The notes under the pieces are model-generated. The model saw only the letters and a program-made list of their open reading frames with translations. It made no database searches and was not told where the DNA came from. This document shows, in pieces, positions 33,748 through 63,999 of a stretch of DNA of 64,000 nt (positions within the stretch are counted from its first letter, which is position 1; each line of letters starts with the position of its first letter). The DNA is from a virus (Duplodnaviria > Caudoviricetes). Made by a program: the position numbers and the translations under genes. The stretch is taken from positions 64,361 through 128,360 of IMG/VR virus record IMGVR_UViG_3300030376_007544, one strand, 5' to 3'.

Positions 33748-34781
33748 TCTACTATTCCCATGATCTTATCCCATGTCAAAGGACCTACTATTCCATCTGC
33801 TGTTAATCCATTGGCGGATTGGTACTTTATAACAGCAGCTTTAGTCAATGGACCAAAGTCTCCATCACTTGTCACCCCAACCGCTATTTGTATTCTCTTT
33901 ACACACTCGCCTTTAGATCCCTGTTGAAAGTTCTCTAAAGCGCAAGCCATGTCATCTGAATCTAGAACATTTGTCCCACTCACACTCACTATTGAAGTTG
34001 GTCCTGCTTGAAAAGTTACTCGATCAACCATATACTTACCCTCATAATGTGGTACGCCTTTTATTTCAAAAGAAGCGCCTGGGTAGATTGATAAAGTTGA
34101 AGAATTTTGAATTAGAGACAACTGTGCTGTCGATGCCTTTTTTGTATCAGTTGATCTTTTTAATGCAACCCTTGAACCAAAATATGCATCCGTAGAATCA
34201 GAAGGTATGTTAATAGTAAAAGAATCTGTGTTTGAAACAATAAACTCTTCTGATGCGAAATATAGTACTCCCTTTGCTTCAAAAAACCTAAAATCTAAAG
34301 CATTAGCCAACCTTCTTAAAACATCAAAAGTTGACTCATCTTTTTTATCATTATGTTCCCTAATAATTGCACCATCAACCGACGTGTCTTCCATAAACTT
34401 ATCTAAACCAAACTTATCTGCCATTAAAGAAGCAAACGTTGATGGTGATATCTGCCCCCAAGACATTGGTCCTCTGTCTCTTCGCATCGCTTGAGTTGCT
34501 TGAAGCCTTGCGGTAAAGTTTACACTATCCGTGTTTCCATGAACTAGGTCTACATCAGATATTTCAAAAAGTTGTGATAAGTATTCAACAGTACGTCCAA
34601 TCATAAAATAGTTGTTTCTGTACATTTCAAAATCAGCGTCATGCACGCTCACGGTAATTTGACTCACCATACTAGCAGATAAGTCGTATGAAAGTCTGGT
34701 GGTGGACTCATGTATCTCAACAATCTTATCGCCAATTTCACCTATTTTCAAAGAGTCAACAGAAGTTGTTACAGTAACCAT
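33744..34781 (-). CDS. Baseplate hub (gpD/gp27-like) with C-terminal peptidoglycan-binding domain
   Basis: ESTFDVLRRLA..LDFRFFE..GVLYF; GSKG..VKRIQ...DGDFGP.T..AV..YQ..NGL..DGIVGP.TW. Confidence 0.75.
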   Translation of the reverse strand: MVTVTTSVDSLKIGEIGDKIVEIHESTTRLSYDLSASMVSQITVSVHDADFEMYRNNYFMIGRTVEYLSQLFEISDVDLVHGNTDSVNFTARLQATQAMRRDRGPMSWGQISPSTFASLMADKFGLDKFMEDTSVDGAIIREHNDKKDESTFDVLRRLANALDFRFFEAKGVLYFASEEFIVSNTDSFTINIPSDSTDAYFGSRVALKRSTDTKKASTAQLSLIQNSSTLSIYPGASFEIKGVPHYEGKYMVDRVTFQAGPTSIVSVSGTNVLDSDDMACALENFQQGSKGECVKRIQIAVGVTSDGDFGPLTKAAVIKYQSANGLTADGIVGPLTWDKIMGIVE

Positions 34782-34816
34782 ACTGTTATTGTACCATTCC
34801 TATGCCTTGATTACAA

Positions 34817-35596
34817 TTAAGGCATTAAAGTGTCTTCAAAGGATTGATCATACAACTCAGCCAACAATGAAGTATATCGTTGAGCTTGGGCGAAGTTTGT
34901 TATCGAGTCTGGATCAGGTAATTCGCCCCTACGCCTTGCTCGCTGAATAAGTTGTTGATATCGTACAGGCTGTTGCATTGATGACCACAGTATCTCCAAC
35001 GCCTCGTCTTCAGGATCCGTTGGAGGCGGTGGTGGAATTGCCTTCGTGTATGTTGGGGTTCTATAAACAGCCAAAAGTTCTGCAATCTCTTGATTTATAC
35101 TAGGTAATTCAGTTAATTGAAAACTGGCTTCCGCCCTTGTTGGCTCACCAGAAGTATTCCTATACTGAACAGCATAACTAAATTTAGTTATAGCAACAAA
35201 AAAAGATAACGACGTGTGTCCATAAACAAACTTGCAACTATACCCATTTTCTGCTATTTTTGTCAGGTCATCTAAAAGGTCTACAACTGGTAAAACTCCA
35301 CCACTTTCCTTATCGGCAATAACCGCCTTAAAAGTAACAGTGCTTAATTGCTGGTTCTGCTTTGCTAAAATTGGCTTTTTACCTGGTCTAGCAATCTGAA
35401 CAAACTTAGTTTCAAGAGTGTCATAACTTATATCTCGTGGTCCAAAAGGAAAAGCTACTTCAATATCAGCATTTTCACCTTCATCATTTTGAACCCCTGT
35501 CGTCCTCAAGACAGCACGCTCAGGATTTACTGTTCTAATTACAGGTGGTGATCCAGTAGGTAAATCAGTTACCCATGTTGTTGTTACAAAAGGCAT
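34817..35596 (-). CDS. Tail tube initiator/baseplate (gpU-like) protein
   Basis: Directly after the tape measure; FPFGP..ISY...QIARPGKKP motif. Confidence 0.55.
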   Translation of the reverse strand: MPFVTTTWVTDLPTGSPPVIRTVNPERAVLRTTGVQNDEGENADIEVAFPFGPRDISYDTLETKFVQIARPGKKPILAKQNQQLSTVTFKAVIADKESGGVLPVVDLLDDLTKIAENGYSCKFVYGHTSLSFFVAITKFSYAVQYRNTSGEPTRAEASFQLTELPSINQEIAELLAVYRTPTYTKAIPPPPPTDPEDEALEILWSSMQQPVRYQQLIQRARRRGELPDPDSITNFAQAQRYTSLLAELYDQSFEDTLMP

Positions 35597-38500
35597 TAGT
35601 TATTATCCTCTGCTTCCGCTGCCACAGCTGCGTTTACTTCAGTACGTATTTCAAGCATTACCGTGTCAACTCCACGACCCTCAACTGTTTCAGCATTAAC
35701 AATAACTTGAGTCCCCAAGGCTGTGTTGTCAGCAATTGTCTTCAGCCAGTCATTTTGATCCTGAGTGTACTGACCAGTTTCCGTCATGAAATTAAGTAGC
35801 ATTTGCTGTGATGCCTCTTGACCGATAACGGCTTCAATTCCAGCAAGATCACCACTCATTATAGCGTCAATGTAGCCTTGATTGTCACGGTTTCTCATGA
35901 AGTCCCTGTTGTCCTCATGGTGCATTACGTATTGACCAAACGCCTTTGAGTCAAACCCTTCAAGCATGTCTGGGGTTAACTCAGATATGCCTCTGTCTCC
36001 AAAGAAGACACCCTTATATATGTCTCTATTTTTATCCACTTGCTTTAGCGCTGCATCAATTTCATTAGGTGACATGCCTTCCAGTTGAGATACGGGAATT
36101 CCAGAATTATCGGAAATTAACTCCAGTTGTCTCTCTTGCTGTCCAATTATATCAAAGTTGCCAACAACATCAACATCACCAAATGCTCCCTCCGCTTGCA
36201 AGTTTCTTATGGATTGAAGTACGGAATAACCAGCCAAGTCAGCGCTTCCACCCATAGCAACTTCTGCGATGGCTGCTGATTCAATGAAGTCCATAAGCAA
36301 ACTTTCATCCATCATACCACTTTCTTTAAATGCGTTTAAAGCAGCATTAGCCGAAGCAGATCTATTCGTCATACCAACCATACTGGTACTAAAGTCTATA
36401 TCGCCAACAAAAGATCTTCCTCTGTCGATAGGATCAAGATTAAAAAGATTCATTAACACACCGACAGCAGACTCGTTAAAGTCTGTATAAGCATCAAGAT
36501 TAAGGGCGGTCATAAAGCCTTCAATCTGCTCTGCTGTCGCTCCAGTTATTTCCGCAACAGCATTCATCTGCCTAAAATAAAGATCTTCTGCTTCTAATAA
36601 GTTAGCTTCAAGTTCATCAAGTAGCCCTGATTCCAATAAAATACCAAAAAGATTGTCCTGATGAACTGACTCAGGGGCTATGCCGAAGTTATTAACTAAA
36701 AACTTACCAAAGTCAGCAGTGTCACCTTCAAACGAACCATCCTCTTCTATTTTCATTCGTCCATATTCATCTTGACCAGCCAGTATAGCCGCTTGCCAAT
36801 CTTCGTGTATCGATGCTTGTTGTTGGTATGCTTCGAAGCCTGAACCCGCCTCAAAAGATGTGACGGTGTCCATTATTCTGTCACCTTGTTTCACTGCTTC
36901 TTTTTTTATTTTTTCTTGACCTTTTCCGGCGGCAATCCATTCACCAACACCACCAACAATAGCACCTAATATACCACCGACCAGTGGACCAATGAGAGGT
37001 ACCACTTGTCCGATCATTGCGCCTGCCATGGCTCCGTGAAGCGCACCGCCAAATCCCATGTCTCCAGTTTGGGCTGCATTCCCCCAAGTGTCTGCTACCG
37101 ACATACCTGAAAAAACTGCACCAACACCTGGAAGTGCTTTACCTCCTGCAAATTTACCAAACTTGGAAATCCCTTGACCAAGCCTTGATCCGCCAATAGC
37201 TCTACCAAGATTAGACGTACGCTCGTAACCACTATAAAGCATGTTCCCTGTACCACGTATACCACGTTGGGCGTACTCTCTTGGCAATCCCCACCTGCTA
37301 CCGGCAAGATTCACCCTTTGAGACATCATTCTATCTACTGTGCCTCCAGTTCCTGTCCAAGCGCGCTGAGTTGCAGTCATTCCACGACCCCAAGCAGCTC
37401 TAGCGCCTGTCCTAACTCCATTAGCTGCAGTCGCACCTGGAACAAACGTTCCTCCTGCTCTAGCAGCAGCTGTGCCAGCCTTAGCCATGGCACGACCCTT
37501 ACCAAATATTCCTAACTTTCGACCACCCATATACATGGCACCCACCGCTAGGAGGCTTCCTAAGCCATTATCGCCACCTATAGAGTTTATCAAGCCAGCT
37601 ATCTGTACAACAGCAGACACAAGAGATGACACAACAGGCGCAAGGTAATTCAATACAGTAGCCAAGGTATTAAGAGCATCAGGTAGTTCTTCAAGGATAG
37701 GAAAAATAGTATTAAACAAATTAAACATGGCAGGAATAACATTATTTGCTAACGAGTTCAAAACGTTGTTAATTAAAGGAAGTTTATCAAAGAATCCTGT
37801 CTGGCCATTAGACAAGCGATCAAACAAAGAACCTATAACGTTACCAATGGCTTCACCAAACTTAATAAAGTTATCGGCATTACCCGTCATAAGTTGCCTA
37901 AACTCTGCGAAAAGACCTCTACCTCCAGCGGCACTACCCATTGCTTTAAACATGTCTAACAATAAGTTGGCTGCAGGCTCAAACTTATTAAACCATGCAC
38001 CCATGGATTCAAAGAAGTCTCTAACTCCTACAAAGAAGTCAACGAAACTTTTTCCCATTTCTTCAATTCGATCAATGTCTTCCAAAACATTTTCTCGAAC
38101 CCAACCAGAGATAGCTCTAATAGTGGTAACCAATGTAGGAGCAAACGAACCTTCACCAAATTTTTGAATTATCGAAGCCATAGCGATAATATCGTTTTTG
38201 ATAATGTTAGATATTTCTAAAAATGTATCTCGGAATGGACCAAGAAGAGGCTCGCCTAAGTCAGCAAACAATCCCTTTTGACTAGCAAACTGAGTTTTTG
38301 CGGTTCCTATTAACGTACCACCCATGTTTTGAGATAGCCCTTGATAACTTGAAGCAGTTGCTGCGCCAGAACTAACAGCGCCAATAAGACCAGCCATAGT
38401 GGTGACTCCGCCTAAAGAACCTTTGTTAAAGCCTTGTGCGCCTTGAACTGCTGTTTTAGCATCAGCAAAGCTTCTAGATCCAATAGCAGCAGCCAATGAA

Positions 38501-49954: not shown

Positions 49955-49984
49955 AAAAAGCCCCCACCCCGAAGGGTGAGGGCT
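49955..49984 (-). terminator. Intrinsic terminator after the major capsid gene
   Basis: AGCCCTCACCC-TTCG-GGGTGGGGGCT then TTTT. Confidence 0.85.
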
Positions 49985-50036: not shown

Positions 50037-51323
50037 TTAAGGAGCAGCGTCGAAGGTAACTTTCACGAAGGACTCTGGTCGCTTAACTGCGAGGGCGAGA
50101 CGCTCTTCAGCAAGAATCACAATTGCGTTTCTTACGAAGAAGTCTGAATGCTGTTCCGAAATTCGGATTGTAGCAGCCTCACGGTCATACAACTGAGCAC
50201 CTGTACCGAAGGCACCGATAAGAGCAGTACCAGAAGCGATAGCAGGAGTGTCAATGACTGGAATTCTCCAGACACGTGACTCTGCGCCACCAGCTACTGA
50301 CATAGCAAGTAGGTAGGTACCTTGTGAGTTTTTGGTAAGTTCAATGTCTTCCCAGTCATTTGGGTTAACAATGATACCAGTTGGCTCGTAGTACGCAAGG
50401 TATGCGAGCGTTGCGGCACGACGGATTGCATCGGCTTTGGTGTCTTTCACCGGAGTGGTAGCACCTGCGGACCATGAATACGTTTGAATGCCTGTAGTGT
50501 TTAGAATACCAGTGAGGTCTTCACCTGTACCAGCACCTGAGAGGATTTGGTTGTCCTCTGTTAAACGCAGACCGTAGAGAAGTTCGTTGTCAACGATTGA
50601 CCGCAGTTGCGGTTCGTCAGCAAGAACGTTACGGTGAGCAGCTTCCCAGTGAGCGATGGTCCGAACCGGAGCTTGCTCGCCAACGAAAGTAAACGTTGAG
50701 TGAGGTTTTGCACCGAATGCGCTGGACGCATATTCAGGAACAACAGAAGCGTTGTTCGTGAAACCGCTTTGACGGAAGTACTCAATAACTGCTGAGTTAG
50801 TGCTACGTGATGGGAAAAGATCCCGTACACGGCTTCTACGTTGTGCGATTGGGACAATTCCGTCACGCTCAACAGCACCGAAAGAACCAGGTGTTCCAGA
50901 TGGCAAACCAGAATAAATATCTTTTTGCTCAAGTGTTTTTGCCTGATAAGGTGCAACCATGTTAACACCGGCTTTACCGCCCTGTAGTGACTTAAATTCT
51001 GGGGAGTCAAGGAATGCTTCACCTACGGAACCGTAGTGATTTGCAACCTCAGCCTCAACGCCAGCAGCAACTTCAGCAGCGACTGACTTGTAGTCAGACT
51101 CTGATGACCATACTGATACGTCACGAAGGGTTTCCATGTCTTCAATAAGACCTTTGATCTCTTTGATCTGGGCCATATTACCTTGAAATGCAGATTTCTT
51201 TTCATCATCTGCAATGAGGGTTTCACCCTCGAACTGCATCGAATCAGCGATCTCTTGCTGCTCTCCCATTTTACTGGTTAAAGCAGTTTTGAGTTCGTTG
51301 AGCCGACTCTCATCAAAACTCAT
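50037..51323 (-). CDS. HK97-fold major capsid protein with N-terminal delta domain
   Basis: VRDLF, VRTIAHW, ED.QIL.G.G.G..L.GIL, F.RN...ILAEERL.LAV.RP..FV. Confidence 0.95.
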   Translation of the reverse strand: MSFDESRLNELKTALTSKMGEQQEIADSMQFEGETLIADDEKKSAFQGNMAQIKEIKGLIEDMETLRDVSVWSSESDYKSVAAEVAAGVEAEVANHYGSVGEAFLDSPEFKSLQGGKAGVNMVAPYQAKTLEQKDIYSGLPSGTPGSFGAVERDGIVPIAQRRSRVRDLFPSRSTNSAVIEYFRQSGFTNNASVVPEYASSAFGAKPHSTFTFVGEQAPVRTIAHWEAAHRNVLADEPQLRSIVDNELLYGLRLTEDNQILSGAGTGEDLTGILNTTGIQTYSWSAGATTPVKDTKADAIRRAATLAYLAYYEPTGIIVNPNDWEDIELTKNSQGTYLLAMSVAGGAESRVWRIPVIDTPAIASGTALIGAFGTGAQLYDREAATIRISEQHSDFFVRNAIVILAEERLALAVKRPESFVKVTFDAAP

Positions 51324-51510: not shown

Positions 51511-52335
51511 TCAACTGGTTGACGTTTTGGAAGTTTTTGCTCTCTTTTTCCAAGATTTAGGAATCAAATCAAGTTTGCCTAAAGCACGGGCACGTTTTAT
51601 AATGTGCTTCTTTGTCTTTTCTTTATCTTTCCCTAGCCCATAAGCCTGAATTGCATTGTTTAAATCCCCAACGTTTCTAATTGGATAAGATCCGTCAGGA
51701 AGCGCCCAACCTCGTTTAGCGTACTCTGTTCGACGTTTACGTGTATAGAACCTTTTCTGATCAAGGTTAGAAAATTTCCGTTGGGTTCCTTTAGACGTGG
51801 TATATTCATCGTTTTTGCCCGAAACAAGACCACCGCCTGGTAAGGCTTCAATTCCACGAGGACCACGCCCTCTTAAGTTTTCCCAAACCCTACGATTAGT
51901 CACAACTCGTCTAGCAGGACGTTGTGCTCTTAGTATCCTAGATCTACCTGCACCAGCATTGCTTTGTGCAGCATTACGTTCTTCTGGGGTTCCGCAGGGT
52001 GCCCAAACGCCTTGCTTGACTTGGTGTGCTCCTTCGCACCCAATCTTAGCTGCTGACATTTCGGCTTCTTCACGAGTGTTAAAAAATCCTTTTTTGGATT
52101 TAGATTTCAAAGACATAAAATCTAAAATTGACTTTTTCTTTTTTTGTTTTGCTTTCCATTCACGAAATGCTGGATTGCCAACTTCAATCAATTTTTGTAA
52201 ATCCCTATCAGATTCGCATGGGCCCCAAGCATCGTCTCCCACTTTATGCGCCCCAGAACATCCCAACATAGCTGACAGCTTTTCTGCCATTTCTTTAGTT
52301 GGTACTGTTTCGCCAGCAAGAGGATCTTTAGCCAT
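51511..52335 (-). CDS. Basic head-module protein with two GC.GAH...W.PC motifs (DUF3721-like) and an ALPDGSYPI domain (DUF6582-like)
   Basis: Motifs visible in the translation. Confidence 0.65.
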   Translation of the reverse strand: MAKDPLAGETVPTKEMAEKLSAMLGCSGAHKVGDDAWGPCESDRDLQKLIEVGNPAFREWKAKQKKKKSILDFMSLKSKSKKGFFNTREEAEMSAAKIGCEGAHQVKQGVWAPCGTPEERNAAQSNAGAGRSRILRAQRPARRVVTNRRVWENLRGRGPRGIEALPGGGLVSGKNDEYTTSKGTQRKFSNLDQKRFYTRKRRTEYAKRGWALPDGSYPIRNVGDLNNAIQAYGLGKDKEKTKKHIIKRARALGKLDLIPKSWKKRAKTSKTSTS

Positions 52336-52343
52336 TGTATGTC

Positions 52344-52988
52344 TTAATTGTTATCCATGCTTCGAAGTTGTTCTTCAAAATTTTTCACGGTAGTAGATTT
52401 TGGTTTAACCATAGTTAATATCTCATTATCGGGTTCTACAGCGTCTCCAATAACTTCCAAGAGTGAAACAACCATACTATTATCTTTGGTCTTTTCAATT
52501 GATCTAAGTATTCCGTATAGTGCTTTAATGTTAGCTATCTCGTCTTCTTCTGATAAAATCGTATCACCTAGGGAATCGTCACTAGGGGATTTAACAATAT
52601 TCATTGCTGTACGAAGTTTTGCTAATTGTGAATAATTGACAAGCTTTGGATAGTTTGTTGGAAATAGCACAATATAGTCTTTAATCTCATCTAATGGAGT
52701 GTTGTCTATCTCGGCTAGCATTAGTCGTTGCTTTGCATTAAAATCTTCAATGTCTTCTATGGCTGACTCGTAAGCGCTTTTGTCAATATCTATCATATTT
52801 GGAAAGTAACCCTTAAGACGAATCTCTGTATATAGAGGGGTGTTGTACCCAATAAGAACTCGCAGATCTTCTTCGAAGAGTTTTACGTCGTCGTCCCAGC
52901 CCATTTTGGACTTAAACTCAGCAGTTCTTAAATCCTCGTTTATGTTGGCAACTATTGTGTTGTCTGGTCCTAACATATAGAATGCCAT
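52344..52988 (-). CDS. Hypothetical protein
   Basis: TAATG coupling. Confidence 0.75.
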   Translation of the reverse strand: MAFYMLGPDNTIVANINEDLRTAEFKSKMGWDDDVKLFEEDLRVLIGYNTPLYTEIRLKGYFPNMIDIDKSAYESAIEDIEDFNAKQRLMLAEIDNTPLDEIKDYIVLFPTNYPKLVNYSQLAKLRTAMNIVKSPSDDSLGDTILSEEDEIANIKALYGILRSIEKTKDNSMVVSLLEVIGDAVEPDNEILTMVKPKSTTVKNFEEQLRSMDNN

Positions 52989-53275
52989 TACTCTTCACCC
53001 TCTTCGTCGAAATCAATATTCCCATCGCCTCGGATTTCGTTACCTTCTTTATCAACTTCATAAATAATCTGTAAATTAAAGGGATTATTAGGAGGAGTTA
53101 ATAGTTCCTCAAGAGTTTTTGGTTTCTTTTCTTTGAGGGCGTCCAAAAACAAAACTTGGAATGTTGGGTTAATGAGATCCGCTTCAAACTTGCCGTCTTC
53201 TATGGTAAGTGTGCCTTGAAACTTATGGTAGTCGGTTGCGTTTATGTCGAAATTATAAATGTTGTATTTTGTCAT
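52988..53275 (-). CDS. Small acidic hypothetical protein, possible partner/immunity protein of the upstream kinase
   Basis: Own leaderless promoter TTGATT-17-TAAAAT at 53282-53310; function is inference. Confidence 0.65.
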   Translation of the reverse strand: MTKYNIYNFDINATDYHKFQGTLTIEDGKFEADLINPTFQVLFLDALKEKKPKTLEELLTPPNNPFNLQIIYEVDKEGNEIRGDGNIDFDEEGEE

Positions 53276-53292
53276 ATTATTATTTTACCATT

Positions 53293-56200
53293 CTATGATG
53301 CCCGAATCAATACATTTAACAACTCTTCAGGGTCGGCTGTTGCAACATAGTTGTACCTGTTCATTACAGTTTCCAAAACCGACTCAAACTCGTATGATAT
53401 TTCTCCTGCCCGTGTAGCGCCACTACCCTCATTCTTAATATGAGCATCCCTAACGTTTTCAACTATAGTTTCAATTTCAGTATTGATAGAGTCATCGTTG
53501 TTAGCTTTAATAACTTTTTGAATGTTTTTAACAATAAGTATAGCTTCTTCACGTTGTTCTGGTGTTCCATTGGCTAAGTCTCGTAATACACCCGTTCCCG
53601 ACTGCAAATACGGATACGACTCGTCTTCAGGCTTATTCGCTAAAAATGCTTCCTGTAACCCCCCACGTACGGCTGCGTCCATGTTTTCTTTGTCTGACCG
53701 CTCTGGGGCCCACCATGAACCGAAATGATCATTTCTCGCTCCAAGGAACCCTCCACCCATGTCAATAGGATAAAGACCGCCTGTTTCTCCGTCACCGCCA
53801 CTCCACATATAGTTATTGTCGTGTCTGTCATGGTTGCCTATTATTGCGTCCAACAGGAACAGGCGAACTCCTGCCTCTGTTGCGGGTCTGTTGCTAACTA
53901 AGTTACCAGCATCATCTCTAGTGGGTAGAGCATCTATTGGTCTGTTTGGTCCGTCATTGAATCTTGTTGGGTTATTAACAGGATCTCCCCTACGCATATC
54001 GCTGTTTACTCTTACACCGCCCTCAAATAACATGTCTCCCAACTCAAACAGTATAGGTCGGCTTCCGTTGTCGCCCTGACCGCCGCCAGGCAAGCCACTC
54101 CTACCACGCATATTGTCAGGAACTTCTCCAGCAAAACGATGGTTTCCTACAGCAAATCCCATTCTTTCTGCAATTATGCCTCCTACTAATTCGTTTGGAC
54201 CCTCATTTGAAAACCAGCTTCTTCCGTGTACATATTTAAGACCAAGAATGGCACCTGTTTCTTTATCTTCATAAAGGTAGATTTTATTAACGCCACCACG
54301 CTGAGTTATGTATTTAAATCTTCCTTGTTCAGTAATGTTACCAGCTGTATCCGTTTTTTCCATGTTGTTTCTTATTACGTTCATCAAATGATCGTCTGGC
54401 ACTTCTGCAAGAGAGCCACCGTTTTTAACGAAGTCGTTGGACGCTTCTTGGGTGTCTAGCCCATTGGCTCCCACTTCTACTATGTGAGGACCTGAATGTC
54501 CTTCAGGTTTAAGCGCTGGAGTATAATCCTGTTTAAATCCATGCTGATCTGGGGCTAGGACTCGTTGCCCTTGCCCTGCTTTCTTCTCTAAGAAATCCTT
54601 AGGATTGCCATCTCTAACACGCTCATCTATTTCGTCTTGCGCAGGGAGCTCAACATCGCTGATATCCCAATCACCTTCCGAAAAGCCAAGGCTGTTGTCA
54701 AGATCGTCTTCGTTGTCATCATAAGCGTAACCCCGATAGCCTCTGCCGCTAATGAAAGCTTTCTCTATCTCACTCTCTGGTACCCCATCTGCCAACATTT
54801 CATCTTTTAGACTTTGGCGCTCACCGCTATCCATCTGATCATCTAACTCGCGATTTCTCATTACATTGAAGAGAGGTGTATTCCTCTTTCGACCTGTTTC
54901 AACTGATGGGTCCATGGCAAGGCTATAGTCATGCAAACTAGGTTGTTCTGAAGGATCTAGGTTTTGTGCTTCATTGAACATTTGCTCAACTCTATTTGCG
55001 GTAGAACTATCTCCAATAAGTATTCTAGCCTGTATAAGTCTTTGGTTATTAATTGGCTGACCGCTTGCCTTGAGGCGCTCATACTCTCTGTAGTTGTCAA
55101 GCAAAGTGCCTATTGGTCCATTAACGCCGTTCAGTGCCTCTATGTCGTATTCCTCTTCCCTGAAGCCCTGTCTTGGCCATATCCCCTGTCCGTCGTCAAT
55201 AGCATCAACATGTACACGATCAAGGCCTAGTCCACGATAGTACATTAATGCGTTATTGTTGAATGTGTCTCCAAAGTTGCCTTGCTTAAAGTTTACTGAC
55301 TGTCCGTCAATCGTCCTAGTTTGGTTAATGCCAAAGTGAGCGTGGTAGACAAAGGGTTCATCGTAACCGTCACCTTTGAGTTTAATCGATCTACGGTAGC
55401 CACCGTGTATCCAATGTCCATTGTTTATGTGATCGTCTACAAGATTTCCGTCTTCATCGTATATTCTGAATCTAAAGTTCCCTTCGGTGATAACACCCTC
55501 TATGTTTCCACTGCTATCTCTAAATACATCGATATCTTGACCGTGGTTAGTGATTGTCTTTTTGTACGTTTTACCGTTTATTACTACAGTTCCTGCGTCC
55601 ATTTCTTTCTTGTGAAGAAACATCTTTCGAAAGTGCTCTCTAACCCTATCGTCGTCTGGACTGCCGTCTGCCTTCTTCCAACTGTTCAGTTCATCCACAT
55701 CAACAGCATATGGTCGTTCGCTTCCATGGAGCTCTACTGATCTTTGGATAGCAGCTTCTTGTCGTTGCTTCAACTTCTCTTTACGTCTTTGTCTCCAATC
55801 GTAATTAAGAAGTGATCGTACAGCCGCCACAGGGCTAGATGGGGTATTTGCTACCGCTTGTTGTACAGCACCGGCTGGAGAATCGGGTTCTATGGTTTCA
55901 ATCTGGACAGAACTTGAATCCGCTATACCAGCGTTTCTTTGACGGAATGCTGCTTGATCTAGAATATCTATAGCATTATTTATCCTGCGTCGGTCATCAG
56001 GTGATGCCTCCCACCCACCAGGAATATCATCAGATATCTCTAACACGTCCATAAGTTTAGCTATTGCCTCATCCCTTTGTGCAGGGGTTATCTCATCTAT
56101 TTCGGCACGAGAAAGACCTTCAATGTCACTCGCAAACACAATCCTGTTATTGATTTGCTCCTGATTCATATCCCTACGACTTCTCATGTTTCTTCTATTT

Positions 56201-59200
56201 CGATCATTTAAGAACCTTGGGATTATATCATTTGGATCACCATTAAAGGCATCTCTGGCTAGTCTACCTCTTCTTCGTTCACTCAAGAAGCGACCTTGAA
56301 GGAAGTCATATGTCGTATCGTCCATTCGCCAAAGTATAGGCGGTCCGTTTCCGTCTGGATCAGGTGTGGTCGTCAAGTACCGCACAAGGGCAAAAATATC
56401 CTCTTGACTTTCTAGCATGGCTATATCTTCAGGAGTTATGTCTGCGGGATCTGTCATCTCTGCCCATCTTGCTTCTGCTTCAGGAGATCGTGGACTTGTT
56501 CCGCCTTCGCCAAACGTAAGGAAGTCTGAAGCCTTAAACACGTCTACCCCATCTGGATCTCCTGCTTCTCTTAAGGCGCCCTCTCTACTTGCCTGACCAG
56601 GATCTCTTATTACATCTGGCTGGTTTCCATCAAATCGTTCAGGTACCCGAATGCCACGCCGTTCTAACTCTTGCTCCATCCATCCTGCTTCGTCTATTAA
56701 GAAGGCCCACTCGTTCTCATTAAATACATCGCTTACGTCTCTTCTATTAAACGCCCCCGCCTCTGGACTGTTTCTCCAATCTATGGCATGGTGTACTTCG
56801 TCAACGAATGACACAAGGTCACCATCGCTAAATTCTTCCCAATTCTCATCCCCATCACGATCTGCCCGTGCTAAGATGTTCTGTCGTTCGACTTCATTTA
56901 GACGACGACGATCAGGAAGCCCTCTCATTCGTCTTTCTTCATAAACAGCTTCAGCTGCAGCATCTATATTGCGGACATTATCAGCCGTTACGTTTCGTTG
57001 CATAATTTCAAATCGTGCATCTAACGCCATAATTGCTTCATCAGTTAGTTCATCCCCGTGGAAGTTCTCTCCCCTGTCTTCAAGGAAGATCTGCTCGGTG
57101 ATGAGGTTAACGAGGTCTTCATCGCTTTCTACAGCAAAAATTTGTTCTGGGGTTATGTCCCCTACTTTTCGTTCGTCGCCATCAAGTGGTCCAGCACCAT
57201 CTGCAAGTATGGCTGCAATAAGATCGCCTTCTTCCGCATCTGCTCGTCTAGAAGCCTGAACTACCTCAGGATCATCAGATGGACGTGGTGTAGCATCTGG
57301 AGCATCGTTGTTGTTATCTTCTCTACCATCAAAGCCAGTTTGAGGGCGCTCGTTACGACGTTCCCTTCTTCTGCCTTGACGTTGGTTAACACCAACTCTT
57401 CTTAAGAATGCTTCACGGCGATGAGGAGCAAGCCTTCCAATTCTATCCTCAAATTCATTATGCTCAGGATTTTGCTCATTAGCATTCATAATGGCATTAA
57501 GTTCGTTCCAGTCTCTATATCGCCTTTCCAAGAGTCTGCGTCTTTCTCGTGGTTGCCTCCGAATGTGTCTGCGCACATCTGCTTCTGAGAAGTCATTTCT
57601 GCCACCAACACCCAATTCTCGTGCCCAAAAGTCACTCAACTCATTAAACTGTTGCTGAGTTTCTCTATTAACGTTTCTTCGATCTCGTTGATTTAGATTA
57701 CGCAAAGGAGCCATTTCAACTGCTTCATTACGCCTTCTTATACCTAGGCGACGATTTCGTCTTGCTAGTTCATCCTGACCATCTGGGGTTACAACTCTTC
57801 TTCGCTCACCCCTTCTTCTCCTGTCTCCAGGTCGTACTACATCAGCAGCTCTACGTAAGCCTCGTTCTCCGGCTTCTTGTGCTCTCACACGAGGACCAGC
57901 ATCATCGCCTCGTACTCGTCGAGGTTGCCCTCTTCTACGGCGTCCACCTTCAGGTCGAACAGCATCGGCTGCTCTACGCAACCCTCGCTCCCCAGCCTCT
58001 TGTGCACGTACACGAGGGCCTGCGCCATCACGATCATCACGATCACGCCGTCCATCACCAGGGCGTATAATTTGTGCAAGTCTTCGCATGATTTTTTCAA
58101 TAATCTCTTGAATTGCCGCCATTATGCTTCGTTGTTGTGGAGTTCTAACTGGATTATCAGTCAATCTTCCAGCCTCAAGTTGGGCAGCCTCTTCAACCTG
58201 CTTAAACGCTTTTCTTACGTCAGAAATATCAGCATCATCAAAGTCACGCTCTTCCAAAACTCTTTGCATATTCTGCAAAGCGCCTTGCAAGTCTTTACCG
58301 TCTAATAAGCCCTTTTGTTCGGGGGTAAGTGCTGCTCTTCTCCGACGATCTGCAATAGTAGGACCAACATCTCCACGGTTACGATTTTCTGTAACCCTCA
58401 AAACATCAGCCAAACTTTTCATGACGTCTTTCAGTCTATCTTGAGCATTAGCAAGTTTCTCTCTATACGCATCGCCTAAACGCTGGCGTCTAGTGCCTCG
58501 CTCACCACGCTCTCGCCGTCTCTCCTCCATGCGATCTTCAATTCGAATGCCTGTATCAACCATGGCATTGACTAATCGACGAGGCAGACTAAAACCACAG
58601 GACCGACCCATTGGGTCAGTAAACTGCCCTGCATTACGAGTACCTGGTGGGCACCTGTGCATATTAATACCTGGATCAAAAATAGCCCGTGCTCTACCAG
58701 TAACGCCACCGCTACCACCACCTGGTGTTAAGGCCCTTGCAAGACCAGACCTGATAGGGCTTGTTATTGGAGAACGATCTCCTGGTGTTATAATGCTTGC
58801 GCCAGTCCCAGCTGCTTGACCAATACGACTACCACTTCCGACTAATCCACTCTTTTTAATCTCTAAAGTATCAGCAAAAGCAGCAACACGTAATTCAATT
58901 TTGTCATGGTATCTACCATCACCTCTAATTGCCTTATTTGCTACAGCCTTTGTTGATATTAGAAAAGGACTAGCTGATTTTTCCTCATTAACAATTTCAA
59001 ATATTTTGTCTCCTTTTGCACGTCTAGGTGCAGACCTAGACAAGAAGGTTTCGTATACCCAACGTGGTACCATTAAGACTTGATCGCCAGACTGAACTCT
59101 GATTCTTTCTTCTCTAGCATCTGTAACTTTATTGAACCTATTGTTCTTTAATTCTCCAAGCTCAACTTTAAATCTTCCGTTGGTAGAATCAACTAAATTG

Positions 59201-60597
59201 TAAATAGACGCAGAAGGATCAGGTAAATTCGCTGTTCTTCTTAAAGATGTTGGGTAAACTCTTTGAACAGCATCCATTTCTGAAGGCTTTAACTCTCCAC
59301 CAACACGGCTAACCTTAACCGCTACATTTGTATCAGGTATTCCAACATATACGTCTCTTAACCCAGCCCCAAATGCAGGGATTAAGTCTTTTCCTATTTG
59401 TCCCTTTGTGTACCTATCCACAAGGCTTCCATCAACCATATCATCGAACTCGTCCATTCCACCAAGTGCCTGTAAAGACACAACAGGTTCCAGAATAACT
59501 CCATCTCTTCGAACAAACCGAGTTCCAAAATCTTCATCTTTAATTCTATTAAGAACCAAATCTACAGAAGTTTGTCTACGGGTGGCGCTACCTTTTTTCG
59601 GTGCAACCGGAATTTGGGCTGCACGAATAATATCGTAAGCACTTCTATTCTTTCTAAGATCGCCAATTGATCTAACCAAGTCAGCACTTCTGGCTAACCT
59701 AGCAAGCGCCCTCTGCGCTCCTTCTGAAGGAGAGCCTGGACCAAATGAAGGTAAGCCCAATATTTGAGCACCACACGTACTAAATTCACGATTTGTAAAC
59801 GTTCCACCTTTTTGGAAACCAGGTGGGCACCTAAATTTATTTCTAGCACCACGCCCAGCACCACGCAGTAATCGACGAGCACTAGGAATCCTGTCTCGCC
59901 CACCACCTGGTGTAAGTGTTTCATATATTTGAGAACGAATTGGTCGTCTAAAGTCAGAAAGGTCACCTGGGAGTAAAAAGGACCCTACTCCTTGAGCTGT
60001 TTGTCCAACTCTATCACCACTGCCGATAAGACCACGCTTTTTAACTTCAATATGACCATGCACAGGTAACGGTGACGAGTACTCAACAAACATTGCAGTT
60101 TTAAGATTAACTACATTTTGACGACCCGCAATTGGCTGTACAAGCACACCGCCAATGTCCCTAGACTCTCTAACCGCTAGGCGCATTGCAGAAATTTCTA
60201 CTATGTCATTATCGAAGTCTAAAGACTTTTTCCTCCTACCGGCTTTCCTTACTCTTCTAACAAGTTTCCTACGTTTACGCTTTTTCTTCTTTTTGCGCCC
60301 TCGCTTATGATGGTTTCCCTCATTAGGCCACAGTCCAGTAGTTTCGTGATGAAGCCACGCACATATACGCTCCAAAGGGTAGAGTTCTGGGTGGTTAGCT
60401 AATATAACCAAACATCTACGAAACCCGCCAGGTTTCTTCATTATGGGGCGCCAGTAACGAAGTAACGATTCTAGGTTACCTCGCCGTGGTCCTCGTCCAC
60501 GTGTAATAGATGTAAGTCTCTCTTGGGGAAGGTCTAAAAGGATATCTTGCGGTCCCTTTATGTCGATATTAGTTTCCATCTGAGTCCCCGACTTCAT
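53293..60597 (-). CDS. Giant multidomain head-module protein with Arg-rich repeats, a GNAT-like domain and a C-terminal HipA/PI3-PI4-kinase-like domain (start may be 60579)
   Basis: GGVN...GLKY...NELVG...LLDAIIGNHDRHDNNY...LYPIDMG; YYRGLGLDRVHVDA..DG.GIWPRQGF. Confidence 0.75.
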   Translation of the reverse strand: MKSGTQMETNIDIKGPQDILLDLPQERLTSITRGRGPRRGNLESLLRYWRPIMKKPGGFRRCLVILANHPELYPLERICAWLHHETTGLWPNEGNHHKRGRKKKKKRKRRKLVRRVRKAGRRKKSLDFDNDIVEISAMRLAVRESRDIGGVLVQPIAGRQNVVNLKTAMFVEYSSPLPVHGHIEVKKRGLIGSGDRVGQTAQGVGSFLLPGDLSDFRRPIRSQIYETLTPGGGRDRIPSARRLLRGAGRGARNKFRCPPGFQKGGTFTNREFSTCGAQILGLPSFGPGSPSEGAQRALARLARSADLVRSIGDLRKNRSAYDIIRAAQIPVAPKKGSATRRQTSVDLVLNRIKDEDFGTRFVRRDGVILEPVVSLQALGGMDEFDDMVDGSLVDRYTKGQIGKDLIPAFGAGLRDVYVGIPDTNVAVKVSRVGGELKPSEMDAVQRVYPTSLRRTANLPDPSASIYNLVDSTNGRFKVELGELKNNRFNKVTDAREERIRVQSGDQVLMVPRWVYETFLSRSAPRRAKGDKIFEIVNEEKSASPFLISTKAVANKAIRGDGRYHDKIELRVAAFADTLEIKKSGLVGSGSRIGQAAGTGASIITPGDRSPITSPIRSGLARALTPGGGSGGVTGRARAIFDPGINMHRCPPGTRNAGQFTDPMGRSCGFSLPRRLVNAMVDTGIRIEDRMEERRRERGERGTRRQRLGDAYREKLANAQDRLKDVMKSLADVLRVTENRNRGDVGPTIADRRRRAALTPEQKGLLDGKDLQGALQNMQRVLEERDFDDADISDVRKAFKQVEEAAQLEAGRLTDNPVRTPQQRSIMAAIQEIIEKIMRRLAQIIRPGDGRRDRDDRDGAGPRVRAQEAGERGLRRAADAVRPEGGRRRRGQPRRVRGDDAGPRVRAQEAGERGLRRAADVVRPGDRRRRGERRRVVTPDGQDELARRNRRLGIRRRNEAVEMAPLRNLNQRDRRNVNRETQQQFNELSDFWARELGVGGRNDFSEADVRRHIRRQPRERRRLLERRYRDWNELNAIMNANEQNPEHNEFEDRIGRLAPHRREAFLRRVGVNQRQGRRRERRNERPQTGFDGREDNNNDAPDATPRPSDDPEVVQASRRADAEEGDLIAAILADGAGPLDGDERKVGDITPEQIFAVESDEDLVNLITEQIFLEDRGENFHGDELTDEAIMALDARFEIMQRNVTADNVRNIDAAAEAVYEERRMRGLPDRRRLNEVERQNILARADRDGDENWEEFSDGDLVSFVDEVHHAIDWRNSPEAGAFNRRDVSDVFNENEWAFLIDEAGWMEQELERRGIRVPERFDGNQPDVIRDPGQASREGALREAGDPDGVDVFKASDFLTFGEGGTSPRSPEAEARWAEMTDPADITPEDIAMLESQEDIFALVRYLTTTPDPDGNGPPILWRMDDTTYDFLQGRFLSERRRGRLARDAFNGDPNDIIPRFLNDRNRRNMRSRRDMNQEQINNRIVFASDIEGLSRAEIDEITPAQRDEAIAKLMDVLEISDDIPGGWEASPDDRRRINNAIDILDQAAFRQRNAGIADSSSVQIETIEPDSPAGAVQQAVANTPSSPVAAVRSLLNYDWRQRRKEKLKQRQEAAIQRSVELHGSERPYAVDVDELNSWKKADGSPDDDRVREHFRKMFLHKKEMDAGTVVINGKTYKKTITNHGQDIDVFRDSSGNIEGVITEGNFRFRIYDEDGNLVDDHINNGHWIHGGYRRSIKLKGDGYDEPFVYHAHFGINQTRTIDGQSVNFKQGNFGDTFNNNALMYYRGLGLDRVHVDAIDDGQGIWPRQGFREEEYDIEALNGVNGPIGTLLDNYREYERLKASGQPINNQRLIQARILIGDSSTANRVEQMFNEAQNLDPSEQPSLHDYSLAMDPSVETGRKRNTPLFNVMRNRELDDQMDSGERQSLKDEMLADGVPESEIEKAFISGRGYRGYAYDDNEDDLDNSLGFSEGDWDISDVELPAQDEIDERVRDGNPKDFLEKKAGQGQRVLAPDQHGFKQDYTPALKPEGHSGPHIVEVGANGLDTQEASNDFVKNGGSLAEVPDDHLMNVIRNNMEKTDTAGNITEQGRFKYITQRGGVNKIYLYEDKETGAILGLKYVHGRSWFSNEGPNELVGGIIAERMGFAVGNHRFAGEVPDNMRGRSGLPGGGQGDNGSRPILFELGDMLFEGGVRVNSDMRRGDPVNNPTRFNDGPNRPIDALPTRDDAGNLVSNRPATEAGVRLFLLDAIIGNHDRHDNNYMWSGGDGETGGLYPIDMGGGFLGARNDHFGSWWAPERSDKENMDAAVRGGLQEAFLANKPEDESYPYLQSGTGVLRDLANGTPEQREEAILIVKNIQKVIKANNDDSINTEIETIVENVRDAHIKNEGSGATRAGEISYEFESVLETVMNRYNYVATADPEELLNVLIRAS

Positions 60598-60748
60598 TTA
60601 GTGGAATATACTGGTGCAGAACACCATCGCTATCTACATATTCTACTTCGTCTTTTTCCCATATGGTACCAAGAAATCGACTTGCACCAAGTTCAAAGAG
60701 GGCTTCATTAGCAAGGCTAATCCGTTCCCCAATTATGTTGGCTTTCAT
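60569..60748 (-). CDS. 59-aa hypothetical protein (MKANIIGERISL...), not in the ORF track
   Basis: GGAGG RBS; fills the gap. Confidence 0.7.
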   Translation of the reverse strand: MKANIIGERISLANEALFELGASRFLGTIWEKDEVEYVDSDGVLHQYIPLNEVGDSDGN

Positions 60749-62598: not shown

Positions 62599-63999
62599 TT
62601 ACTGAACACCCTCGTCGGTGTCAACGCTTGTATTGTCTGTTATTGTAAATTGGGGATCAAACTCTAGAGAGGCTAAACCAAACGCTACCTTCTCTAATAG
62701 TTCGTCATGCGCAATTTTTGTTGAAAAATGTAGATCAACCCCTTCTTCGCTCTTAAACGAAAGGACTGATACCCCATTCATAGCATCAACAACATCAAGC
62801 GCTTGATTATCATTGCATTTTACATGCACAACAAAACCAGAAAGTGCCTTTTCACTATTTTCGGCAGATGCCGGATTTGATGTCAAAAACTCTTCAAGGG
62901 CATTGATTACGGCTAGTGTAGACTCTCGTAACTCACTTGCTCCTCTTACTGGAAGCATGGCATTGTACGCCATTAGGAGAAGAGCCATTGGATCTTCTTT
63001 CCAGTCTTTTTTGGCTTTCCTGTATCCTGAGTGACCGTGTACGCCACCTTTTTCTTCTGTTTCACAACCGCAAGCGCCTTTTTCGGATTCAGCATCTTTT
63101 GCTTCTTCCACCTCAACACCAGCAAGGTAATTGTTGTGTGCATTAAGGTTTGCATTTCCATCAAACTGCTTTAATGCTTTTTCGTATTCTTCATGGGTTG
63201 AACATGGTAAGTAACCACCACCATGTGAGTGGTATCCATCGCACCCGAACGTCTTTGACCAAGCTAATGCAATATCAGGGGTTGCCCATGTACCCTCTTC
63301 AGGGTTTGCATCTCTTAAACTCTCAGGAAGTTCAGTGTTGTCTTTTATCATCATTGATGGTGAATTTGAATCTCCAACAGGGGTGTAAGACACTGTTGGT
63401 TTAACACGTGTTGGCTTGCTAATTTGAATTTGTCCATTATCACGTGAGAATGTAGCCATCCATACTGAATCTTCACCTGCTTGGAATACTACAGAATTAT
63501 CCATAACTTGTAGAACTCTAACTGGCTTGCGAAGAGCCTGTGAAAGTGCTCTTCCAATCATAGAAGATACAGAATCAGCACTGTTCTGTGGACCATCCTT
63601 GTCGTCATCTTCCCAGTGTCCCTTTGCCATAATGCCTTCCTCGTCATCTTTAACTGAAATAGTTCCAGTTAGTTGATTTGCTCCGTGTAGTACAGGAGAA
63701 ACTTCGTATAATTCTACTTCTTTAAGCATGTTTGCTTGTTTTTCTGCGTTAAAATCAGCAGTAATTGTTTTGTAGCCGATTGACCACTCTTGTTCTTGTC
63801 CATAAAACGCAACGTTTGCAAAAGCCTCACGCCCACGTTCTGTGTTTAAATTAAACTGAACTTTAGCAAAAAGTCCACCAATGCCTGCTTTTCTCATTTT
63901 TTCAGGCAACCTAGGATCTGCTGGTCCAACTTCATACATTTCTAGAACCTTACCAATTGGTTGGTTCCAGTCGTGGCCCCAGACAACACGAGGTTTTCT
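62599..63999 (-). CDS. HK97-family prohead protease with C-terminal extension; 5' end lies beyond the window
   Basis: Frame open to the window edge: RKPRVVWGHDWNQPIGK...EWSIGY...LYEVSPVLHGAN. Confidence 0.92.
   Translation of the reverse strand, partial: RKPRVVWGHDWNQPIGKVLEMYEVGPADPRLPEKMRKAGIGGLFAKVQFNLNTERGREAFANVAFYGQEQEWSIGYKTITADFNAEKQANMLKEVELYEVSPVLHGANQLTGTISVKDDEEGIMAKGHWEDDDKDGPQNSADSVSSMIGRALSQALRKPVRVLQVMDNSVVFQAGEDSVWMATFSRDNGQIQISKPTRVKPTVSYTPVGDSNSPSMMIKDNTELPESLRDANPEEGTWATPDIALAWSKTFGCDGYHSHGGGYLPCSTHEEYEKALKQFDGNANLNAHNNYLAGVEVEEAKDAESEKGACGCETEEKGGVHGHSGYRKAKKDWKEDPMALLLMAYNAMLPVRGASELRESTLAVINALEEFLTSNPASAENSEKALSGFVVHVKCNDNQALDVVDAMNGVSVLSFKSEEGVDLHFSTKIAHDELLEKVAFGLASLEFDPQFTITDNTSVDTDEGVQ

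Follow-up and report, generated by a model that had tools for sequence, protein, structure and literature searches.

This analysis concerns P0001, a giant gene of an uncultured phage, which lies in a 64,000-nucleotide stretch of DNA (hereafter the window) that forms the final 64 kb of a 128,360-bp IMG/VR virus record (IMGVR_UViG_3300030376_007544; completeness estimate 87%). The gene occupies positions 53293..60597 on the minus strand as a single open frame with an ATG start, and it encodes a protein of 2,434 amino acids (aa). A chance open reading frame (ORF) is ruled out because more than 50 full-length homologues match at E = 0. A first-pass annotation of the DNA had described the product as a polyvalent head-module protein, placed it among MuF-type and polyvalent effectors, and proposed that it ends in GNAT-like and kinase domains. 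The parts that we recognize along the protein, from its N-terminus to its C-terminus, are as follows.

60313..60570, minus strand: small helical domain, residues ~10-95, with YWRPIMKKPGGFRRC...CAWLHHETTGxWPNEG and many invariant columns (alignment, model, phrog_6439)
60223..60312, minus strand: Lys/Arg tract, residues 96-125 (composition)
59746..60057, minus strand: module 1, residues 181-284, GSG...LTPGGG...RCPPG...G.FT...CG (near-invariant in the family, predicted disordered)
58993..59595, minus strand: ordered alpha/beta domain, residues 335-535, predicted local distance difference test score (pLDDT) ~80-89 (model)
58591..58869, minus strand: module 2, residues 577-669, a diverged copy of module 1 (hidden Markov model (HMM), BLASTP)
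58063..58500, minus strand: helical bundle, residues 700-845, the C-terminal limit of family-wide conservation (model, BLASTP mapping)
55918..58062, minus strand: low-complexity linker, Arg-rich at residues 846-1100 and then acidic at residues 1101-1560, of varying length and sequence among homologues (composition)
57841..58020, minus strand: span of two exact peptide copies of the repeat GPRVRAQEAGERGLRRAAD, at 57964-58020 (residues 860-878) and 57841-57897 (residues 901-919)
55153..55620, minus strand: putative GNAT-like domain, residues ~1660-1815, with loop KQGNFG and ...WPRQGF (motif pattern, partial model)
54613..55152, minus strand: helical subdomain after the GNAT-like part, residues 1816-1995, pLDDT mostly >85 (model)
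53296..54510, minus strand: atypical protein-kinase-like domain, residues ~2030-2434, with K2121, E2136, D2257-R-H-x-x-N2262 and D2279 (HMM relatives, alignments, model)

One N-terminal platform with exchangeable ends

A word-indexed search returned 52 giant homologues of 1,477-3,905 aa, all of them metagenomic and several from Tara samples. When these proteins are mapped by BLASTP, residues ~26-845 prove to be common to nearly all homologues at 43-78% identity, the middle varies, and many homologues retain the C-terminal 860 residues (25-40% identity) where others have a replacement. Variation of the C-termini, which the first-pass annotation had proposed as a check, is therefore evident: the end of the protein can be a kinase, a NUDIX domain, or a combination of sigma-70 region 4, HTH_3, the PolyA_pol head and RNA-binding domains. 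Members of the sigma type (P0044-P0049, 3,500-3,900 aa; P0046 lies at L003:10001-21229) are built on the same N-terminal platform, and their sigma-70 region 4, HTH_3 and PolyA_pol ends may be delivered transcription or RNA-modifying factors.

The cargo end evolves, or is exchanged, much faster than the platform: identity to P0003, P0004 and P0005 is 96, 91 and 89% over the N-terminal 850 residues and only 58, 55 and 41% over the C-terminal 695, and in locus L015 it reaches 100% for the upstream 59-aa ORF and 89% for the 601-aa gene. Elsewhere, at L004:10001-17384, a giant gene of 1,602 aa is immediately followed by an 857-aa DUF7178 gene; judging from gene adjacency alone, the pair is probably a split form of the giant.

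Residues 1-850 found nothing in Pfam, NCBIfam or PDB sequence searches, and the only PHROGs match on the platform is phrog_6439 (function not known), at residues 54-99. We regard the 845-aa platform as a previously undescribed family that has no Pfam family. Its structural model (pLDDT 61) contains four ordered parts: the helical domain (residues 40-90), the alpha/beta domain (335-535), the Cys-containing end of module 2, and the bundle (700-845). Among BFVD structures, Foldseek matched the platform to an uncharacterised 426-aa phage protein (E 2e-13) and to a protein named 'prohead protease' (E 7e-6).

The duplicated module that had been noticed by eye lies where it was first placed and stands up to alignment. 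BLASTP aligns modules 1 (residues 186-276; 60042-59770) and 2 (residues 581-670; 58857-58590) at 43% identity (E 1e-18), and an HMM of module 1 matches residues 577-669 at 1.2e-20. As judged by sequence, the two GSG-LTPGGG-RCPPG-CG modules are true paralogues. HMMs of the N-terminal domain, both modules, the alpha/beta domain and the bundle detected no extra copies elsewhere in the 128-kb contig.

The small N-terminal domain also occurs apart from the giant proteins. Residues 10-130 are found as stand-alone proteins of ~200-220 aa (55-87% identity) in many large phage contigs, and they recur within an S78 protease fusion (P0228, residues 732-836) encoded directly after a portal-MuF gene. Prohead proteases have to enter the procapsid themselves, and because the same domain is present both at the N-terminus of the giant and within such a protease fusion, we consider it a reasonable candidate for a procapsid-targeting domain. 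On one Tara contig (L006:1-9678), a stand-alone 225-aa N-domain protein (P0177) lies behind two huge ORFs of more than 3,128 and 1,164 aa. Giant proteins of further phage lineages may thus also come with this domain.

Two features of the linker had been reported earlier, and each is borne out. The long acidic region contains 24-28 Asp plus Glu residues per 100 across residues 1101-1400, and the Arg-rich repeat GPRVRAQEAGERGLRRAAD consists of two exact 19-mer copies. The copies encode identical protein and differ at 12 of 57 nucleotides, in 11 of 19 codons, with every difference synonymous. Since the peptide is identical while its codons differ only synonymously, this pattern indicates a peptide under selection rather than a fresh duplication. 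The peptide, which is confined to the closest clade, may serve for docking or for recognition by a protease.

The kinase domain and the GNAT-like segment

The kinase that had been proposed from DRHxxN and PIDxG motifs is well founded. The motifs are in place, as GNHDRHDNN at residues 2254-2262 (53838-53812) and YPIDMGG at residues 2276-2282 (53772-53752), and an AlphaFold2 model of residues 1740-2434 (mean pLDDT 78.5) gives the last ~400 residues a bilobal protein-kinase-like fold with a full C-lobe. Failure of this domain to model as a kinase, one outcome that the first-pass annotation had named as refuting its reading, thus did not occur. A whole-library HMMER search with the final 695 residues found 92 relatives, most of which match residues ~2030-2290. 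The ATP-binding Lys (K2121), the helix-C Glu (E2136), the catalytic loop (D2257-R-H-D-N-N2262) and the metal-binding Asp (D2279) are all present in the query, and each is invariant or at least 90% conserved in two alignments of 27-38 sequences. As judged by the residues kept, the kinase appears to be catalytically intact. A PDB sequence profile search gave weak matches to Fam20C, CtkA, PI4K-IIalpha and actin-fragmin kinase, which are all atypical kinases and all align through the catalytic loop, and the modelled domain is an atypical kinase fold of the PI3/4K-CotH-HipA-Fam20 group. In BFVD, proteins named portal, head-morphogenesis (MuF) and ADP-ribosyltransferase end in the same kinase fold.

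Family databases touch this domain lightly. The PI3_PI4_kinase family (PF00454) scores 12.6 bits on the query (E 0.13), under its gathering cutoff of 27.1 bits, and beyond this match and sub-threshold PDC-M03A touches on the catalytic loop, Pfam, NCBIfam and PADLOC returned nothing else. Two short relatives, P0071 and P0072, pass the PF00454 cutoff with 33.6 and 32.8 bits, and 11 of 23 diverse family members touch the same family when scanned singly. We classify the query by its sequence as a superfamily relative, not as a Pfam-defined member. Regarding the suggested likeness to HipA, the query has no HipA Pfam match, its relatives give sub-threshold HipA_2 or HipA_C matches only, and the neighbouring genes are head genes.

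The second proposed enzyme, a GNAT-like acetyltransferase segment, fared less well. The motif stretch is there, at residues 1770-1812 (55284-55162), residues ~1660-1815 fit the GNAT pattern by eye, and the model fits a beta4-loop-alpha3-beta5-alpha4 order (strand 1766-69, helix 1774-89, strand 1794-98, helix 1803-10) in a slice that began at residue 1740 and thus excluded the N-terminal strands. Significant profile matches are what the claim lacks: the query has no Pfam acetyltransferase match at E <= 1, a PDB profile search with the segment found no acetyltransferase, and an hhalign comparison with one family, the phage's own and atypical ATPase-GNAT family, gave a probability of 0.9%. Acetyltransf_1 is touched, below significance, in the motif-A stretch of 2 of 23 relatives (P0094 at E 0.036, the best at E 0.013), and an atlas search placed GNAT-labelled clusters at ranks 4 and 26 only, which are weak leads. 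The putative acetyl-CoA loop reads KQGNFG in the query, versus the family consensus xGGGxA and RGSGMA in P0094. We lean slightly toward a GNAT fold for this segment, and we would hold acetyltransferase activity to be less probable than the fold itself.

Whatever its activity, the GNAT-like domain is on present alignments an independent unit, because sigma-type homologues retain it without the kinase and because it is joined to a kinase in stand-alone phage proteins (P0094, 876 aa; BFVD A0A6J5MJB0, 614 aa, E 4.5e-14). The phage encodes a further, separate protein of 373 aa outside the window (contig 34754-35875, plus strand; L008:832-1953), with an ABC-type ATPase-like part and a bona fide GNAT domain (PF00583, 23.8 bits), whose metagenomic homologues number in the thousands.

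The head module, the phage and its host

The genes and signals surrounding the giant gene, in the direction of transcription, are the following.

62599..63999, minus strand: prohead serine protease, Peptidase_S78 / phrog_80 plus a DUF3721 motif; reaches past the contig end
60766..62571, minus strand: very acidic 601-aa DUF3721 protein, scaffold candidate (DUF3721 match, acidity)
60569..60748, minus strand: 59-aa ORF overlapping the start of the giant gene, candidate coupled partner or chaperone (conserved across loci)
52344-53275, minus strand: ORF95 and ORF214 (95 and 214 aa), directly after the giant gene
51511-52335, minus strand: 274-aa DUF3721-motif protein, before the capsid gene
50037..51323, minus strand: major head protein (MCP; phrog_10, E 2e-63)
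49959..49984, minus strand: terminator-like hairpin with an 11-bp stem, 8 G-C pairs and a T-run, between the capsid gene, which it follows directly, and the ribonucleotide reductase (RNR) gene

This arrangement agrees with the original placement of the gene between protease/scaffold genes and the capsid gene: the S78 protease and the 601-aa protein lie upstream, and ORF95, ORF214, the 274-aa ORF and the MCP gene follow downstream in that order. The head genes are closely spaced, the hairpin 3' of the MCP gene is the only strong terminator, and it is here that the head transcription unit probably ends. A promoter-like site (TTGATT-17-TAAAAT with TG, at 53310-53282) overlaps the end of the giant gene; such sites are regionally no commoner than chance.

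The giant gene occupies the same slot of the head module in all eight homologue loci examined. Six of these, with long upstream flanks and with giants of the kinase, NUDIX, sigma and short types, share one gene order: terminase, portal, (MuF), S78 protease, a ~600-aa protein, the 59-aa ORF, the giant, small ORFs, a DUF3721 protein, MCP and RNR. P0094, which has no platform, lies in the corresponding slot: two small ORFs and a DUF3721/DUF5824 protein come next, and then, at the place where the capsid gene is expected, an ORF at the end of the contig.

Homologues of the 59-aa ORF (33-100% identity) are present in six of six other compared loci that cover its position, regardless of cargo, and it is probably a coupled partner of the giant gene. 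The homologue P0002 begins at the equivalent of Met7 (60579), and a start at this codon yields an 11-nucleotide overlap with the 59-aa ORF, as in other loci; Met7 may thus be the true start of the giant gene. On the downstream side, ORF95 has homologues only in the two closest loci, and those of ORF214 flank kinase-, sigma- and short-type giants. We considered ORF214 as a kinase-specific immunity gene and rejected this idea, since its homologues accompany all these cargo types, as expected of a general head-module gene; ORF95 is at most a candidate for such a role.

Several neighbours resemble one another. A short DUF3721 motif (G-C-x-G-x-H ... P-C) is common to the C-terminal part of the protease, the 601-aa protein and the 274-aa protein, and the latter two also both have a C-terminal LPDGS[FY]PI..DL.NAI motif. 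In related phages, homologues of the 274-aa gene run to ~500 aa, about 230 aa more. On comparison, the DUF3721 motif of these neighbours and the N-terminal domain of the giant proved to be unrelated.

The contig is circularly permuted relative to the head module, and the portal gene (contig 1615-2589) and the MuF gene (contig 479-751) lie near its start on the same strand as the giant gene. MuF is a gene of its own, also in loci L002, L003 and L015-L017, and it is 200-270 aa in this phage and its relatives. Downstream of the head module lie the RNR gene and genes for a tail sheath, a tape measure, a baseplate and fibres, from which we conclude that this marine phage of ~130-150 kb is a myovirus. 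Two WhiB genes are carried by the phage, and its closest capsid proteins are those of Gordonia and Brevibacterium phages (46-48% identity), the sole link to named phages that we found; for these two reasons, the host is probably actinobacterial.

Proposed role and comparison with known systems

With moderate confidence, we favour the view that, in a lineage of large marine actinobacterial myoviruses, the giant is a polyvalent protein of modular build that associates with the virion, and that it would be loaded into the head and delivered with the DNA so that its kinase acts on the host. The N-terminal ~845 aa would be the family-defining platform that carries the protein into the procapsid; once there, it may be cleaved by the prohead protease, whose gene lies two genes upstream. 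The C-terminal ~800 aa would be an exchangeable effector cassette composed of the GNAT-like domain, the helical subdomain and the atypical kinase. The protein or its fragments would then exit the capsid together with the DNA, and the kinase would phosphorylate targets in the host during the first moments of infection, ahead of any phage gene expression. We infer packaging, processing and ejection, and likewise a protein substrate and any acetyltransferase activity. This reading is attractive because the late-operon position, the constrained N-terminal platform and the fast-changing, exchangeable effector end match the logic of Alt, MuF fusions and polyvalent proteins, all of which are thought to be injected (PMC5512222, PMC5576092). 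Furthermore, sigma region-4/HTH cargo that is made late would make most sense if carried into the next cell.

Several results weigh against this proposal. First, module 1 is near-invariant by alignment and yet predicted by the model to be disordered. Second, apart from the BFVD matches, structure searches of the platform returned a generic bundle only, with no fold or family that ties it to a known packaged protein, and megablast and tblastn searches of the giant gene against 50,697 named phage records gave zero matches. Third, the PF00454 score of the query is below the cutoff, and its nearest structural neighbours are not protein kinases alone but also kinases of lipids and sugars (PI4K-IIalpha, MavQ, Fam20 xylosylkinase). 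Fourth, nine mid-sized kinase relatives have no MuF or portal Pfam domain, so that the link of this kinase to those platforms is by BFVD names alone. Finally, an enzyme made from a late operon could equally act in the producing cell.

A broader version of our proposal, which we put forward only tentatively, is that the 845-aa part is a new, MuF-independent capsid-loading and ejection platform with which large marine actinophages would bring kinase, NUDIX, or sigma-region-4/HTH plus PolyA_pol-like cargo into the host before genes are expressed, with the ~100-aa N-terminal domain as its capsid-targeting signal. Such a system would be a counterpart of polymorphic-toxin delivery whose cargo includes transcription factors.

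The most serious alternative is that the giant serves in assembly or as part of an internal core and is not delivered. Its N-terminal part would be a scaffold or core for a large capsid, and its enzymatic end would act late, either within the cell that makes the phage or within the capsid as it matures (capsid proteins, scaffold proteins and host factors being possible targets), and be inert or absent in the next host. The position of the gene in the late operon, between protease/scaffold-like genes and MCP, suits such a role, as does an N-terminal part that is far more conserved than the end, which is what a structural part would show. An invariant module 1 that is disordered alone would fit folding only against a shell partner, and the Lys/Arg-rich tracts could bind packaged DNA. 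However, the very acidic 601-aa protein is already scaffold-like, and a purely structural role makes it hard to explain why the C-terminus diverges quickly and is swapped for NUDIX or for sigma-region-4/HTH and a PolyA_pol-like nucleotidyltransferase. The argument from late-made, transcription-factor-like cargo likewise favours transfer to the next cell. We judge an undelivered core to be unlikely.

Less likely still is a lipid or small-molecule kinase (acting for example on phosphatidylinositol, a sugar or a nucleotide) that remodels the envelope or a signalling molecule at entry. Phosphatidylinositol is made by many actinobacteria, which lends this idea some appeal, and because the nearest folds span protein, lipid and sugar kinases, we leave the substrate class broad. 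It is very improbable that the enzymatic end is a decayed, non-catalytic pseudokinase/pseudo-GNAT serving as a binding or decoy domain: the departure of the KQGNFG loop from xGGGxA and from the RGSGMA of P0094, and an identity of just 25-58% among homologues in the C-terminal part, would fit decay, but the retention of every kinase catalytic position, (nearly) invariant over 27-38 sequences, argues for activity of the kinase at least.

If the giant is indeed packaged and ejected, then phages would have a second, MuF-independent way of having enzymes ready, loaded in advance, when the first seconds of an infection begin. Entering alongside the DNA, a kinase could shut down the defences or metabolism of the host while phage genes are still unread, a role that has been shown for the early-expressed T7 kinase (PMC13645617). 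The family also offers a natural experiment in which one platform carries at least three cargo types, and the N-terminal domain shared with protease fusions, at present without a Pfam family, is a testable candidate for a capsid-targeting tag. The hosts would be abundant uncultured marine actinobacteria, in which takeover by phages is barely known.

T4 Alt and internal proteins, as well as the N4 virion RNA polymerase gp50 (~3,500 aa), are late products that are packed into the head, enter the cell along with the injected DNA and act before phage gene expression. The giant would resemble them as a late enzyme with predicted head loading and injection, and N4 gp50 is similarly huge, although no sequence or fold relation was found. 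At the level of the kinase domain, identity is only 10-16% to CotH (5jda), PI4K-IIalpha (4pla), CtkA (3akj), HipA (4pu3) and Fam20C, and the domain scores below every Pfam cutoff. Unlike HipA, the giant has neither a HipA N-terminal domain nor a HipB partner, and its kinase is fused to a head-module platform. The T7 gp0.7 kinase is small, early-expressed and non-virion, and we take it to belong to a different kinase clade. The parallel is one of function, a phage kinase directed early in infection at host proteins and defences, which T7 disarms through broad phosphorylation (PMC13645617).

The giant shares with MuF polymorphic toxins and SPP1 gp7 a conserved head-associated N-terminal part, a variable C-terminal effector, and a location near portal and protease (Jamet et al., 2017; PMC5576092). 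The MuF-type label itself does not hold, however, since residues 1-850 lack Phage_Mu_F (PF04233) at E <= 1 and MuF is a separate gene. Kinases are absent from the cargo listed for those toxins (PMC5576092), and the ORF214 gene downstream of the giant is common across cargo types rather than a cargo-specific immunity gene.

The polyvalent label, by comparison, is apt. The protein joins at least two effector-type domains (the kinase and the putative GNAT-like domain) in one phage polypeptide, its architecture varies among relatives, and its setting is among virion genes. Polyvalent proteins are likewise very large, multi-domain, encoded among virion genes and variable in architecture between relatives, with protein-modifying enzymes such as kinases and GNATs among their cargo, and their packaging and injection have been predicted (Iyer, Burroughs, Anand, de Souza and Aravind, 2017; PMC5512222). 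Unlike the described polyvalent kinases, which belong to a truncated Ser/Thr/Tyr-type clade (PMC5512222), the kinase of the giant falls in the PI3/4K-CotH-HipA-Fam20 group and has a full C-lobe, and neither a Pfam LPD (large polyvalent protein-associated) domain nor MuF was detected in the giant, whose platform is not a described family. What is known, then, is the principle of polyvalent and polymorphic phage effectors, and what is new is the undescribed N-terminal platform and the range of cargo that it carries.

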